NCBI GenBank assembly: GCA_964633745.1
Contig: CAZWHZ010000005.1
Location: 1-42,127, forward strand
Reading direction: 5' to 3'
Source of the DNA: an uncultured Acidimicrobiia bacterium
GTDB lineage: Bacteria; Actinomycetota; Acidimicrobiia; Spongiisociales; UBA4744
DNA length: 42,127 nt
The stretch's first letter is position 1; each line of letters opens with the position of its first letter. Below are positions 1,278-33,413 of this stretch, piece after piece. Both the position numbers and the translations under genes were made by a program. The notes under the pieces were generated by a model. The model did no database searches and was not told the DNA's origin. It saw only the letters and a list, made by a program, of their open reading frames with translations.

Positions 1278-1403
1278 GTCGGGCTACGCCCGACGCCATG
1301 AGTTGTCGGTCATCGGTTGTCGGCAAGCCGATCGCCGTGTCGCCCCGTGGTCTTGGACCCCCGAGGTCGCGAACCGAGAACTGAGAACCGAAAACAGCGA
1401 AGC
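1278..1403. repeat. Intergenic hairpin + inverted heptamer-array element, copy 1
   Basis: Hairpin GTCGGGC-TAC-GCCCGAC (1278-1294). Left arm AGTTGTC GGTCATC GGTTGTC (1301-1321). Core 1340-1376. Right arm GCGAACC GAGAACT GAGAACC GAAAACA GCGAAGC (1369-1403), approximately the reverse complement of the left arm. Confidence 0.75.
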
Positions 1404-1408
1404 GTGGC

Positions 1409-4045
1409 CTACACCCTGGCGCCGTGGCAGTGCTTGTACTTCTTGCCTGAGCCGCACGGGCATGGTTCGTTGCGGCCCACCTTCGAAGACGTCGCCTGAG
1501 CGACAGAACGGCCGCCGGCGCCCGCAGCCTCCCGTTGATGAATCTCTTGTTGGCGCTGCGCCTTCTCCGCCTGCTTTGCGACTTGCACATGGAACATGTA
1601 CCTGGTCGTTTCGCTCTTCACGGAGTCGACCAGCTCGGCGAACATGTCATACCCCTCGCGCTGGTACTCGACGAGCGGATCGCGTTGCCCCATCGCGCGC
1701 AATCCGATCCCGGCCCGCAGGTAGTCCATTTCGGCGAGATGCTCACGCCACTTCGCGTCGATCACCGCGAGTACGACCGTCTTCTCGATCTGGCGAAGCG
1801 TGTCGGCACCGAGCTCCTCCTCGCGAACATCGAACGTCGCAAGAGCCTCATCGACGGCTGCGTCAGCGACATCGGTAGCGTCGATGCCCCTGCCATCGTC
1901 GAGTGACTCGAGGTCCAGCTCCGATGGGTAGAACACATTCAGCTGTCTGATCAGTTCGTCCCAATCCCAGTCTCGGGGAGAGCCCTCGCCCAGCACGCTC
2001 TCGACAGTGCCGCTGATGACCTCCTCGATCCACTCCCGCACCAGGGTCTCACTTCGATCTTGACGCAGGAGGCCGTTGCGCCACTTATAGATCACCTCAC
2101 GTTGACGGTTCATCACCTCGTCGTACTTGAGAACGTTCTTGCGGATCTCGAAGTTCTGGGACTCCACCTGTCCTTGAGCCCGCTCGATCGCCTTCGATAC
2201 GATCTTGGCTTCGATCGGCACGTCGTCGGGTATCCGGAGCCGCTCCATGATCATCTCAACGCGGTCCGAAGCGAACCGACGCATGAGGTCATCACCGAGT
2301 GACAGGTAGAACCGGGACTCGCCCGGATCGCCCTGACGACCGGACCTTCCTCGCAACTGATTGTCGATCCGGCGGGACTCGTGACGCTCGGTACCCACGA
2401 CGTACAGGCCACCGGCGTCGAGGACTTCCTTGCGTTCTGCGTCGGTCTTCACTCGGAAGTCGACGAGCGTCTCGTCGAGCGCCGCTTCGTACCCGTCCGA
2501 GCCCGGCTCGAAGCCGGCCTTCGTCAGAGCCATCTGCGCGAGACCTTCGGGGTTGCCTCCAAGCATGATGTCAACCCCACGACCGGCCATGTTCGTCGCG
2601 ACGGTCACGGCACCCTTCCTGCCGGCCTGGGCGATGATGACTGCCTCTCGAGAGTGTTGTTTGGCATTGAGTACCTCATGTGGCACACCGCGCTTGCGAA
2701 GGGCCGTCGACAGCCGCTCAGACTTCTCGATCGACACGGTGCCGATGAGCACCGGCTGACCTCGCTCGTTCCGCTCCACAACATCGTCCACTACGGCATC
2801 GAACTTGGCTTCCTCCGACTTGTAGATGAGGTCTGGCTGATCGATCCGAATCACCGGCATGTTGGTGGGAATCTCCGCGACTTCGAGGTTGTAGATCTGA
2901 GCGAATTCGGCGGCCTCGGTCTTGGCGGTACCCGTCATCCCCGCGAGCTTGTCGTACATGCGGAAGTAGTTCTGGAGGGTGATCGTCGCCAGCGTCTGGT
3001 TCTCTTCCTTGATACGGACGCCCTCTTTGGCTTCGATCGCCTGGTGCAGCCCCTCTGAGTAGCGGCGCCCATCCAACACACGTCCAGTGAATTCGTCGAC
3101 GATCTTCACCTCGCCGTGGTCGACGAGGTAGGCGACATCCTTCAGGTACAGCTCCTTGGCGCGAAGCGCCGCATCCAGGTGATGGACGAAGTCGACGCTC
3201 GTGTAGTCGAACATGTTCTCGATACCGAGGATCTGCTCGACTCTGGCCACGCCCTCCTCCGTCGTGAGGACCTGCCGCTTCCCTTCGTCAACCGTGTAGT
3301 CGAGGTCTTTGCCGAGGCGGCGGACGATCTTGGCGAACTCCCGGTACCACTTTGCCGTGTCGGTCACCACACCGCTGATGATCAAAGGGGTTCTGGCCTC
3401 GTCAACGAGGATCGAGTCGACCTCGTCGACGATGGCGAAGTGATGACCCCGCTGCACCAGGTCGGCAGTTCTCATCGCCATGTTGTCCCGCAAATAGTCG
3501 AAACCGAACTCGTTGTTGGTCCCGTACGTGATGTCGGCCGCGTAGGCTGGCCGGCGCTGTTCCGGTGTCATGGCTGCCTGGATCAATCCAACCTTCAGAC
3601 CAAGGGACCGGTGGATTCCCCCCATCCACGCGGCATCCCGTGCAGCGAGGTAGTCATTCACCGTCACCATGTGAACGCCTTCGCCGGTGAGCGCGTTCAA
3701 GTAGGCGGGCATGGTCGACACGAGCGTCTTGCCTTCGCCGGTCCGCATCTCGGCGATCATCCCGGTGTGAAGGGCGGCGGCGCCAACGACCTGCACATCG
3801 AAGTGGCGCTGACCGAGCACGCGCTTCGAGGCCTCACGCACCACGGCGAACGCTTCGACCAGGATGTCATCCGGCGTCTCGCCATCTGCAAGCCGGCCAC
3901 GGAACTCGTCTGTCTTCGCCGTCAGAGCCGCGTCGTCGAGGGCCTCCATCTCTGCTTCGAATGCACCGACCTGATCGGCGATGCCCGCGAGGTCTCTCAG
4001 AACCCGCGACTCACCCGCATGGAGTACCTTGTTGAAGAGCGACAT
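1409..4045 (-). CDS. secA: Preprotein translocase subunit SecA
   Basis: MRTGEGKT Walker [53 protein letters not shown], and C-terminal SEC-C motif [13 protein letters not shown]. Confidence 0.99.
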
Positions 4046-31544: not shown

Positions 31545-33307
31545 GTCAGCGTACCGGCACCTCCGAACCGATCACGTCGCTCCTGGTAGCCAACAGAGGA
31601 GAGATCGCCGTTCGTGTGCTCCGTTCGGCCAAGGAAATGGGTATTCGCACGATCGCCGTCTACTCGGAACTCGACAGGGACGCGCTCCACACACAAGTGG
31701 CCGATGAGGCTTGGAACATCGGTCCGGCCCCTTCATCCGAGTCCTATCTCGACTCCCACCGGATCCTCAGGGTCGCCAAGGAGGCAAACGCCGACGCCGT
31801 CCATCCTGGCTACGGCTTTCTTGCCGAGAACGCCGCCTTCGCCAGAGAGGTGATGGATGCCGGACTCATCTGGGTGGGTCCGCCGCCCGAGGCAATTGTC
31901 ACGATGGGATCAAAGATCACCGCCAGGCAGGCCGCTATCGAGGCGGGCGTCCCTGTGGTTCCGGGCACGAGTGAGCCACTGGAGAGCGTGGAAGAGGCAT
32001 TCACGATCGCCGCGGAGTACGGCTTCCCCGTCGCCATCAAGGCGGCTCACGGTGGTGGTGGCAAGGGGATGCGCATTGTCGGCGACGGAGCAGCCCTCAA
32101 AGAAGCGATCGAAGGTGCCAGACGTGAAGCGGAGGCGTACTTCGGCGATCCCGAGGTCTATATCGAGAAGTACATAGAGAAGCCCCGTCACATCGAAGCA
32201 CAGATCTTCGCCGACGATCACGGCCACACCGTCTTTCTGGGCGAACGGGACTGCTCCCTTCAGCGGCGCCACCAGAAGCTGATCGAAGAAACACCGGCTG
32301 CCAATATGCCTGACCGTTTACGGCGTGCGATCGGCCGCGCTGCAGTGCAGATGGCCAAGGCCTGCAACTACCGAGGTGCGGGCACGGTGGAGTTCCTCGT
32401 CGATTCCGACAGCAACTTCTACTTCCTTGAGATGAACACCCGGCTTCAGGTCGAGCACACGGTCACCGAGATGGTCACGGGCATCGACCTGGTCCAGGAG
32501 CAGATCCACGTTGCGAACGGGCTGCCCCTGTCATTCTCCAATGCGGAGCACGCGGGGCACGCGATCGAGTTCCGTATCAACGCCGAGGATCCGGCGACGG
32601 GGTTCATCCCCCAGCCTGGTCGCATCATCGATTACAGGGAGCCCGCAGGTTTTGGCGTCCGTGTGGACTCCGGCGTGAGAACCGGTTCGGAGATCAGCCG
32701 CTACTACGACACCCTGATCGCCAAGCTCGTGGTGTGGGGAAGGGACCGCGACCAGGCCATCGCGAAGGCCAGACGGGCGCTTGGCGAGTTCAAGATCGTG
32801 GGCGTACCAACCACCATCCCAGCGCACCTCATGATGCTGGACAACAATGCGTTCCTGAAGGGCACGCATCACACGTCGCTCGTGGAGTCCGAAATCGACT
32901 TCTCGGATCTGGTCCAGTCGATCCATCCGCCCGTCGAGGGTGACGAGGCACTCGCCAGGCGCGACATGACGGTGGAAGTCTCCGGTCGCAGATACACCGT
33001 GACGTTCTGGGCCCCCGAAGCTCCCACCGCAGGGGGAAGACCTCGACGCAAGCCACCCAAGCTCGACCGAGGCGCGGCCATCACTTCAGATGACGCCGGT
33101 ATCGTCACGTCGCCGATGCAGGGGACCATCGTGAAGGTGCATGTCGAGGCCGGGGATCGCGTCAGGAGCGGCGACCCGATCTGTGTCCTCGAAGCAATGA
33201 AGATGGAAAACGAGGTGCGATCGCAGGTCGACGGCGAAGTGATAGAAGTGAAGGTACGGCCCGGCGATACCATCTCGACCGGTCAGGTCATGGCGGTCAT
33301 CCGATAG
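31541..33307 (+). CDS. Acyl-CoA carboxylase alpha subunit (biotin carboxylase + biotin carrier)
   Basis: [47 protein letters not shown] and biotinylation motif EAMKME. Confidence 0.96.
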
Positions 33308-33413
33308 GGCCCGCTTCGCGGGCCCGTATCTCGTACCTCGCAATCGTGCCTAGATCCCTGAGACCAACGACGGCCACGGTGCAAGGTACAGGGTCCGAGG
33401 TACTGCCGAAGGC
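33307..33413. repeat. Intergenic hairpin + inverted heptamer-array element, copy 4 (between convergent genes; may double as a terminator)
   Basis: Hairpin GGGCCCGC-TTC-GCGGGCCC (33307-33325). Left arm CCGTATC TCGTACC. Core CTGAGACCA (33358-33366). Right arm GGTGCAA GGTACAG GGTCCGA GGTACTG (33378-33405). Terminal GCC-GAA-GGC (33405-33413). Confidence 0.8.

Follow-up and report, generated by a model that had tools for sequence, protein, structure and literature searches.

Tandem arrays of 7-nt units between genes form a little-studied class of bacterial repeats. Described here is a family of such repeats that was noticed in four intergenic gaps of a 42,127-nt stretch of DNA from an uncultured Acidimicrobiia bacterium (contig CAZWHZ010000005.1 of assembly GCA_964633745.1, hereafter the window). 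The family consists of abundant, fast-changing, genus-wide non-coding hairpin repeats at gene ends in uncultured salt-marsh bacteria. It is a local variant of the class already reported in other bacteria and opens no new category. As early as 2007, 7-nt repeats were noted to be in excess between the genes of bacteria, and this excess is still described as unexplained (Mrazek et al., cited in PMC4679880). The comparisons below refer to the available parts of the cited reports.

Xanthomonas genomes hold 70-75 convergent heptamer-array pairs made of GGGAATC units (Rehm et al., 2015; PMC4692102). The Xanthomonas and Nostoc arrays of that report have variable numbers of tandem 7-nt units, are mostly intergenic and rare between divergent genes, often lie at most 50 bp from a stop codon, include opposite-strand pairs able to form stem-loops, and vary in length among related genomes while their type is kept. 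The present family behaves likewise; a conserved core such as the one found here is not described in the available part of the report (PMC4692102). The present units contain no GGG tracts and fall outside the quadruplex-forming subclass of Xanthomonas and Nostoc. They also differ in that unrelated heptads share one asymmetric core, in their G.U-paired arms and in their TAG-tagged GC caps. Nunvar and co-workers (2010) are said to be a further source on GTAG-tagged repetitive extragenic palindromes (REPs) and on REP doublets forming hairpins (REPINs). REPs tagged with GTAG often contribute a TAG stop through their termini and are found downstream of genes (Di Nocera et al., 2013; PMC3733652). 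Like the REPs, bacterial interspersed mosaic elements (BIMEs) and REPINs of that report (PMC3733652), the present units are high-copy, GC-rich extragenic palindromes, often in inverted pairs and mostly 3' of genes, with TAG-stop termini, supposed RNA hairpins and variation between related strains. Unlike REPs, they have a CTAG tag as frequent as GTAG, the bulk of each unit is heptad arrays plus core, and the REP-associated tyrosine transposase (RAYT, of the Y1 type) was found in 0 of 20 related genomes.

In Geobacter metallireducens, paired tandem hepta- and octanucleotides were described as 'global regulator binding sites' (Aklujkar et al., 2009; PMC2700814). These have 4-5 tandem units of 7-8 nt, mostly in opposite-strand pairs at variable distance and in dozens of copies, as here, and one class, MTYCTGA, is near the CTGA-containing right-arm units of the present family (PMC2700814). 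They belong to another phylum and were read as protein-binding without a test, and the available part of the report describes neither a core nor a link to stop codons (PMC2700814). With the Xanthomonas and Geobacter repeats the present family shares a 7-nt tandem period above background and close opposite-strand arrays able to form a stem-loop. TAACTGA heptamer repeats were reported from marine Beggiatoaceae, cyanobacteria and Bacteroidetes (MacGregor, 2015; PMC4679880). They resemble the present family in being abundant intergenic heptamers with a CTGA core, in sets of 2-6 units, with an unexplained function and a proposed RNA-level role. Unlike it, according to the available part of that report, they form 169 direct sets against 1 indirect, have no separate core or hairpin, and lie just upstream of start codons in place of Shine-Dalgarno sites (PMC4679880). 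Literature searches on Acidimicrobiia repeats and on heptanucleotide repeats returned nothing on the present lineage. The Correia elements of Neisseria are non-coding inverted-repeat units of ~100-150 bp at gene boundaries, which fold in transcripts and can carry outward promoters. The present family differs from them in that no target duplication was seen at the one site compared, in that no parent transposase was found, and in having arms of tandem heptads, not unique terminal repeats.

Genomes and searches

The window is contig C5 of a 157-contig draft genome (G000; 1.84 Mb, 63% G+C, ~77% complete by estimate). The genus was represented by five genomes (G000 and its sisters G001-G004). Enzyme and model searches covered up to 20 genomes of the taxonomic family (15 of them outside the genus) and 21 genomes from the order's other families. 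Arrays were detected with a simple period detector and with Tandem Repeats Finder (TRF), for which the arrays of copy 3 were too short at a score of 30. Core profile matches were counted at E<1 or E<=0.1, and those of a covariance model built from 42 copies at E<=0.01.

Many contigs of G000 start or end inside heptad arrays (C3:12-43, C14:1-16, C19:37-125, C24:2-26, C29:50-127, C35:66-105 and C42:3-20), and contig breaks of G001, G002 and G004 fall exactly at orthologous element sites (sites 3 and 4 of the window). Because contigs break within arrays, the family is taken as a main cause of assembly fragmentation and all copy counts are lower bounds.

A dispersed family with one core and variable arms

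The period detector found 89 period-7 arrays genome-wide, against 6, 5, 3 and 6 for periods 5, 8, 10 and 11, and period 7 was assigned to 337 of 1315 TRF rows. The commonest units in these rows were CGGTTCT (31), CAGTCTT (20), CGGTTTT (17), CGTACCT (13), CAGTCAT (13), CAGTCGT (11) and CGGTTGT (10). Most of the 'spacers' between paired arrays contained one asymmetric conserved core of ~40 nt, TCGCCCCGCGGTC...GGTCGCG, with a layout of roughly CGGTAGGA-nn-CTCGCCCCGCGGTCTCG-(~10 nt)-CAGGTCGCGTTCTTAC. The same core was found between CGGTT/GACTG-type arms or GTAC-type arms, and GTAC-armed units carried it in either orientation. In G000 the core profile gave 83 matches at E<1 and 74 at E<=0.1. The covariance model gave 124, some of them double matches on both strands. 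These counts support the proposal of the initial annotation that the four gaps belong to a dispersed non-coding family of constant architecture and variable heptamers.

A unit is built from a GC stem-loop, (7-nt units)n, the asymmetric core of ~40 nt, (inverted 7-nt units)n and a second GC stem-loop. The hairpin that had been placed at the left end only is present there, and GC hairpins usually stand at both ends. Terminal GCTCGC/GCGAGC motifs flank the units. Over four arrangements they were counted 64 times (11 times when the genome was shuffled), in the manner of the high-copy, GC-rich 20-40 bp palindromes, often in inverted pairs, that characterize REPs. At 29 ends with a stop codon and a perfect hairpin, the tag was CTAG in 11, GTAG in 7, ATAG in 1 and NTGA in 10. 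When 14 good copies were compared with Rfam 15, only two matches to Actino-pnp were obtained (E 0.47-0.82, 20 bits against a cut-off of 47.7); the window itself gave 0 matches.

Dispersed cores had a median identity of 62.5% and are old. Nine pairs of cores were at least 85% identical, and in 6 of these the two cores shared a contig and lay no more than 2 kb apart; recent spread thus seems to be local. Near-identical pairs (87-95%) were seen to bracket one or two ordinary genes at C66:2035/3954, C57:8988/10367 and C85:4709/5913 of G000, the enclosed genes encoding a methyltransferase with an iron-sulphur protein, an M20 peptidase and a nitronate monooxygenase. Such pairs could come from local hopping, from gene conversion or from the enclosed genes moving like cassettes.

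The four copies of the window

A GC stem-loop, a 7-nt tandem array, a spacer and an inverted array were present in all four gaps. This shared layout, already proposed from the sequence, was confirmed by inspection, by TRF for copies 1 and 2, and by GTAC spacing for copies 3 and 4. The features are as follows.

1279..1295, no strand: copy 1 outer GC stem-loop, GTCGGGC-TAC-GCCCGAC, with a 7-bp stem; a homologous hairpin is found in G002, where the element is absent
1300..1400, + strand: copy 1 full element (TRF; core profile E 2.8e-4; covariance model E 1.2e-11)
14902..14918, no strand: copy 2 outer stem-loop, GGCTCGC-TCC-GCGAGCC, the commonest terminal motif of the family
14919..15026, no strand: copy 2 arms around a diverged centre (TRF; arms-only covariance match on the - strand, E 1.5e-7)
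15027..15044, + strand: copy 2 right terminus, ...CGGAGCCCC-TAGACT (read from the sequence)
26565..26586, no strand: copy 3 outer stem-loop, GGCTAGTG-GCGGGT-CACTAGCC, kept in G001, G003 and G004 despite the differing adjacent element
26587..26670, + strand: copy 3 GTAC-type element (core profile E 1.6e-5; covariance model E 3e-6; GTAC spacing)
33308..33326, no strand: copy 4 outer stem-loop, GGGCCCGC-TTC-GCGGGCCC, directly after the biotin-carboxylase TAG stop (33305-33307)
33327..33417, - strand: copy 4, decayed GTAC-armed element, apparently inverted (by eye; no model match)

Copy 1 lies between the secA stop (CTA, 1409-1411) and prfB. Its left arm is made of CGGTYNT units (TRF period-7 array 1302-1323, 3.1 units), its core (~1324-1370) reads GTCGCCCCGTGGTCTTG...GAGGTCGCG, and its right arm is made of AACYGAR units (TRF period-7 array 1371-1395, 3.6 units). 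On the - strand the outer stem-loop is followed by TACCAT and, 9 nt further, by the prfB ATG (1262). Copy 2 occupies the divergent gap between a phosphoglucomutase-type gene and a glycosyltransferase gene, with a left array (CRGTCTT)x6 at 14919-14961 (6.1 units by TRF) and a right array (GACGACT-like)x3 at 15000-15022 (3.3 units by TRF). On the - strand its outer stem-loop is followed by TACAAT immediately ahead of the phosphoglucomutase-like gene start; at the other end, TAGACT (15039-15044) stands 9 nt ahead of the TTG start of the glycosyltransferase gene (15054).

Copy 3 has a UDP-glucose dehydrogenase gene and a glycosyltransferase gene as neighbours. Its canonical core (26615-26648, GCTCGCCCCGTGGTCTC...GGTCGCG) is enclosed by a left arm at 26587-26614 and a right arm at 26649-26669, in which GTAC/GTAT recurs at 7-nt steps, with four occurrences in the left arm (26590-26614) and three in the right one (26649-26666). 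Copy 4 occupies the convergent gap between the biotin carboxylase and methylmalonyl-CoA mutase genes. Two GTAY heptads are found on its left (33327-33340) and three degenerate ones on its right (33383-33403), around a centre with a GAGACC remnant. Its terminus, GCCGAAGGCC-TA, is the source of the CTA stop (33414-33416) of the methylmalonyl-CoA mutase gene. With filters off, the covariance model matched copies 1-3 of the window (copy 2 by its arms only), the next best match being at E 0.66, and copy 4 was undetected. From the GTAC arms and a reversed core read by eye, copy 4 would be a decayed, inverted, GTAC-armed member of the family, by inspection only; its orientation is reversed relative to copies 1 and 3.

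Turnover at orthologous sites

The covariance model found 59-98 matches in each of the four other genus genomes, 1-32 weak matches in 14 of the 15 other family genomes, and a match in 4 of the 21 genomes from the order's other families. A strict core pattern, searched in 185,579 species genomes, gave 22 scattered single matches. One (L103) was a true element and one (L086) was coding sequence; the remaining 20 were taken as chance, judged by their scattered taxa. This search was possibly made without the genomes nearest to that of the window and has little bearing on distribution.

The four window sites were syntenic in G001-G004 and their content differed. At site 1 the same element was found in G004 and a shortened one in G003; G001 had a different element there, with GTAC arms, and G002 had just a hairpin. 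Compared with G002, the element was inserted within the last secA codons, with a new TAG at its edge. At site 2 the same element was present in G001, G003 and G004 with four left heptads (six in G000), so that copy 2 was retained in 4 of 5 genus genomes, and G002 had a different half-element. Site 3, GTAC-armed in G000, was occupied in G003 and G004 by an AACAGC/GCTGTC-armed unit with a long unrelated centre; G001 had a 60-nt remnant and G002 a contig break. In G002, site 4 was occupied by a short CAGTCGT hairpin; the three other sisters had another type of repeat there. At the orthologue of locus C130 in a relative, the core was kept and the right arm was different.

This other type at site 4 is a second hairpin repeat, with CCTCCCCC...GGGGGAGG arms around a GCGAGCGAAGCGAG motif and sometimes in tandem. 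It stands in G001 (L078), G003 (L079) and G004 (L077) where G000 has copy 4, and it was seen elsewhere in G000 at C83:1128-1326, near 3057 of C130 and at C1:75651-75830.

Where an element was retained, its identity was 85-96%, compared with 78-83% over 600 nt of coding DNA beside it, a difference that alignment sliding in repeats may inflate. A contig of the public metagenome run X9, with 3 other differences in 1539 nt (~99.8% identical), lacked exactly 21 nt (three heptads) at 14933, in the array of copy 2. The variation in presence and absence that the initial annotation had anticipated was thus found in the four sister genomes, with three states at site 3 and unrelated fillers at site 4. 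Presence, absence, replacement and array-length change at orthologous sites support turnover or mobility of the units.

Gene ends, stop codons and start sites

Of 74 elements, 54 lay between two confident genes, 14 at contig edges and 6 'inside' a called gene. The 54 placed elements were distributed over 23 convergent, 26 co-directional and 5 divergent gaps, against 10.8, 30.7 and 12.5 expected (gaps >=60 nt; p 7e-5). Convergent gaps were about twofold over-represented and divergent gaps under-represented. From the mixed orientation of the genes around the window copies it had been concluded that these are not simply terminators; this was too strong, the family being enriched at gene 3' ends and in convergent gaps genome-wide.

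The hairpin began 0-2 nt past the stop codon, and TA or TAG flanked both ends of many units. Where a stop codon abutted an element, it was TAG in 42 of 66 cases; among all called stops of the genome, 443 of 1301 were TAG (p 7e-7). A stop with a perfect hairpin was found on both sides of 1 of 64 elements and on one side of 27, against 8 of 64 with shuffled flanks, the perfect-stem criterion being strict. More generally, TAG made up 34% of the called stops of G000 (443/1301), and a TAG followed directly by a GC palindrome was common; the family may shape stop-codon usage genome-wide.

Of 22 gene starts next to an element, 11 had TANNNT 4-12 nt ahead of them, compared with 207 among all 1268 genes (p 2e-4). 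The same arrangement was found at copies 1, 2 (both sides) and 3 of the window. From what is generally known of actinobacterial promoters, the terminal TANNNT is a putative -10 box of a leaderless gene.

Folding and orientation of the units

All four window copies folded as single hairpins, and other single copies likewise formed one long hairpin. Fold z-scores against shuffles (+/- strand) were -1.8/-0.4, -3.5/-2.7, -1.2/-1.7 and -2.5/-1.2 for copies 1-4. With the structure of a single-sequence fold, which was used for the pairing tests, 80.3% of alignment cells paired, against 30-49% when the partners were slid; RNAalifold predicted no consensus structure for the 42-sequence alignment. Within each heptad the pairing scheme is C.G, G.U, G.C, U.A, U.G, mismatch, U.A. 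The arms are indeed imperfect reverse complements, as had been noted, and their pairing runs through G.U wobbles plus one mismatch per heptad, giving a weak, interrupted helix. Whichever strand is read, it is the 5' arm that is rich in pyrimidines.

Folded as RNA, the sense strand was the stabler in 43 of 55 copies (mean -54.9 against -47.5 kcal/mol, difference -7.4, p 1.6e-6) and, in a second, slightly different set, in 53 of 60 (mean difference -8.7 kcal/mol). With DNA parameters the difference was small (43/60, -1.6 kcal/mol). The strand specificity of the fold comes from the non-Watson-Crick positions, which read G.U on one strand and A.C on the other. In an RNA library (run X24), one contig of 155 nt covered 33263-33417 with no differences, from 44 nt inside the upstream gene to the far edge of copy 4; this library covered a small share of the window, with 17 contigs placed and one over an element, and its uncovered stretches carry no information.

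On contig C4 of G003 (653,510 bp), GC skew switched sharply near 550,000, from ~-0.04 to +0.05, as at a replication origin. The core sense strand was the leading-strand sequence in 16 of 22 matches on this contig, on which the gene-strand bias was only 54-62%. When the sign of the local skew was used in G000, sense was leading in 40 of 56 copies (p 0.002), and 695 of 1077 genes (64.5%) were leading. In the convergent gaps of G000, where transcription cannot set the orientation, leading and lagging sense stood at 15:5 (p 0.04). The co-directional gaps with lagging-strand genes gave 4 against 3, too few for a replication bias to be told apart from a transcription bias there. A replication-linked orientation is suggestive only.

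Enzymes and enclosed genes

The initial annotation had proposed a mobile element whose enzyme is encoded elsewhere, and empty versions of cassettes carrying four-helix-bundle genes. The searches turned up neither such an enzyme nor such a cassette gene. Y1_Tnp/RAYT (PF01797) was absent from G000 and from all 20 family genomes (13 of them >=90% complete), with matches in 6 of 14 control genomes. Among the five genus genomes, TnpB matched in 0, an IS630-type DDE transposase (DDE_3) in 1 and IS110 in 2; other transposase families were not searched. None of the four enzymes searched (Y1, TnpB, IS630-type DDE and IS110) was common to these five genomes, and no parent transposase of the kind expected for a miniature inverted-repeat transposable element was found among them. 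The IS110-family transposase genes were L083 (G003:C9:65727-66161) and, in G001, L082 and L084. IS110 relatives are known to target REP-like hairpins.

The proposed link to four-helix-bundle cassettes found no counterpart: 23S_rRNA_IVP (PF05635) had no match in G000 (77% complete). Nor did longer copies enclose an open reading frame (ORF) specific to the element; all 16 genes between neighbouring elements belonged to ordinary Pfam families, including HrpA helicase, UppP and phosphate ABC (ATP-binding cassette) transport, and none was of the four-helix-bundle type.

The prfB gene next to copy 1 (release factor 2; 1190-1262 in the window, - strand) shows the classic programmed +1 frameshift. The ATG at 1262 opens 23 codons, which are followed by CTT TGA C at 1196-1190 after a GGAGG-like stretch, and the main PCRF/RF-1 frame resumes in the +1 frame.

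Discussion

We favour, at a probability of about one half, the view that the family is a REP/BIME-like hairpin repeat that acts as a gene-boundary module and spreads without a dedicated transposase, by hairpin and slippage events on single-stranded DNA. At gene boundaries, units come and go, are replaced and are duplicated locally, and arrays change by whole heptads, as the comparisons above show. Copies would appear and disappear via hairpin formation or slippage at the replication fork, and the sense strand would tend to be the one exposed on the lagging-strand template. The outer, TAG-bearing end often gives the incoming gene its stop codon, as the stop-codon counts show. In the transcript the unit may fold into an extended hairpin, rich in G.U pairs, which terminates the mRNA or protects its 3' end. 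On the outgoing side, the same end gives, by the start-site counts, a TANNNT -10-like box 4-12 nt before the start codon, as for a leaderless gene, the promoter function being presumed. The earlier idea of a mobile element is upheld as far as the dynamic sites are concerned; no enzyme was found in the searches above, and no clear target duplication was seen at the one site compared.

Several observations weigh against this gene-boundary reading. No covariation was detected, 333 of 500 column shuffles reaching the observed pairing, and the free position of the heptad was complementary in 12 of 55 unit pairs against 18.2 +/- 3 expected. With no covariation and an unpaired variable position, the hairpin is a property of the consensus, and selection on it is not demonstrated. 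Single-copy fold z-scores were modest, copy 2 excepted. No U-tract (T-run) followed the hairpins at any of the four window copies, as a canonical intrinsic terminator would have; hairpin terminators without a U-tract are known in Actinobacteria. Orientation to transcription was weak (16 sense and 10 antisense in co-directional gaps), and copies 1 and 3 are antisense to both adjacent genes. The overall leading-strand preference (40/56) was indistinguishable from the gene-strand bias (p 0.17). The fold asymmetry was -10.3 kcal/mol in the leading class and -3.8 kcal/mol in the lagging class, so that part of it may be mutational skew. No clear target duplication was seen at the one filled/empty pair (site 1, G000 and G002, genomes ~80% identical). 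The RNA contig over copy 4 is the sole hint of expression, and DNA carry-over is possible. Gene calls came from our own crude codon-usage ORF scorer. Copies in one genome and orthologues across genomes are not independent.

Alternatively, the units could be selfish or neutral hairpin junk without cell function, produced by local duplication and slippage and surviving where least harmful, in convergent gaps and at the 3' ends of genes. The rapid turnover and replacement of elements between orthologous sites, polymorphic arrays, a median core identity of just 62.5% and the absence of covariation fit this explanation, and the depletion of divergent, promoter-bearing gaps (5 against 12.5) fits purifying selection against harmful insertions. 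Neutral junk is harder to reconcile with retained orthologues whose conservation exceeds that of the coding DNA around them (85-96% against 78-83%), with termini linked to stop codons and TANNNT boxes well over background, or with copy 2, which 4 of 5 species have kept although its gap is divergent and holds promoters; we regard it as possible but on the unlikely side. It is doubtful, to a greater degree, that the family exemplifies a widespread class of elements, as yet unnamed, which propagate themselves without a transposase of their own and have become domesticated gene punctuation. Such elements would fold on the lagging-strand template and be copied or deleted by replication slippage and template switching; the punctuation would comprise the stop codon, the transcript-end hairpin and the -10 box for a leaderless neighbour, and the 7-nt period would be a step of the replication or repair machinery that generates the arrays.

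Heptads could also be read as DNA, as iterated sites for one protein per 7 bp with the core as a nucleation or bending site. Heptad-binding ribbon-helix-helix repressors exist and offer a possible parallel. This would suit the strict 7-bp period with its free, unpaired seventh position, the 4 of 7 positions that are Watson-Crick complementary in DNA, the small DNA fold asymmetry (-1.6 kcal/mol), the weak orientation to transcription and, in the available part of the report, the paired tandem heptanucleotide sites of Geobacter with their consensus MTYCTGA (PMC2700814). A single protein is, however, an unlikely reader of heptads as unrelated as CGGTTCT, CAGTCTT, CGTACCT and GCTGTCA around one core; orthologous loci can carry exchanged arms around a conserved core, and no candidate protein was identified, which makes binding arrays a rather improbable explanation. 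At the RNA level, the pyrimidine-rich 5' arm, (CRGUYNU)n, might be a pad for cold-shock-domain proteins, one per heptamer, that unwind the hairpin and so make a regulated antiterminator out of a terminator. Bacillus subtilis CspB binds heptamer repeats, one protein per heptamer with a preference for T-rich ones (as cited in the available part of PMC4679880). The 5' arm is pyrimidine-rich on either strand and the helix is weak, with its G.U pairs and one mismatch per heptad, yet the arm sequences are too diverse for strong sequence specificity, and such a platform seems very unlikely. Least credible are empty cassettes of 23S rRNA intervening-sequence proteins, or REP/REPIN elements mobilized by RAYTs, for which we see hardly any chance. 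TAG-tagged GC palindromes in inverted pairs do resemble GTAG REPs and BIMEs, but PF05635 had no match in the 77%-complete G000, PF01797 was absent from 20 family genomes (13 at least 90% complete, controls positive), and no long copy bore an ORF of its own (0 of 16 enclosed genes). Chi sites and telomere-like repeats were also weighed as readings of the heptads and set aside.

In these bacteria, with their streamlined genome of ~2 Mb, the units occupy a large share of all gene boundaries. Annotation and operon reading of uncultured Acidimicrobiia are affected through broken assemblies, stop codons set by elements and possible promoters. With its fixed core, swappable arms, strand-specific fold and suggested replication-linked orientation, the family offers a test case for whether 7-nt repeats act as RNA, as DNA or as neither.

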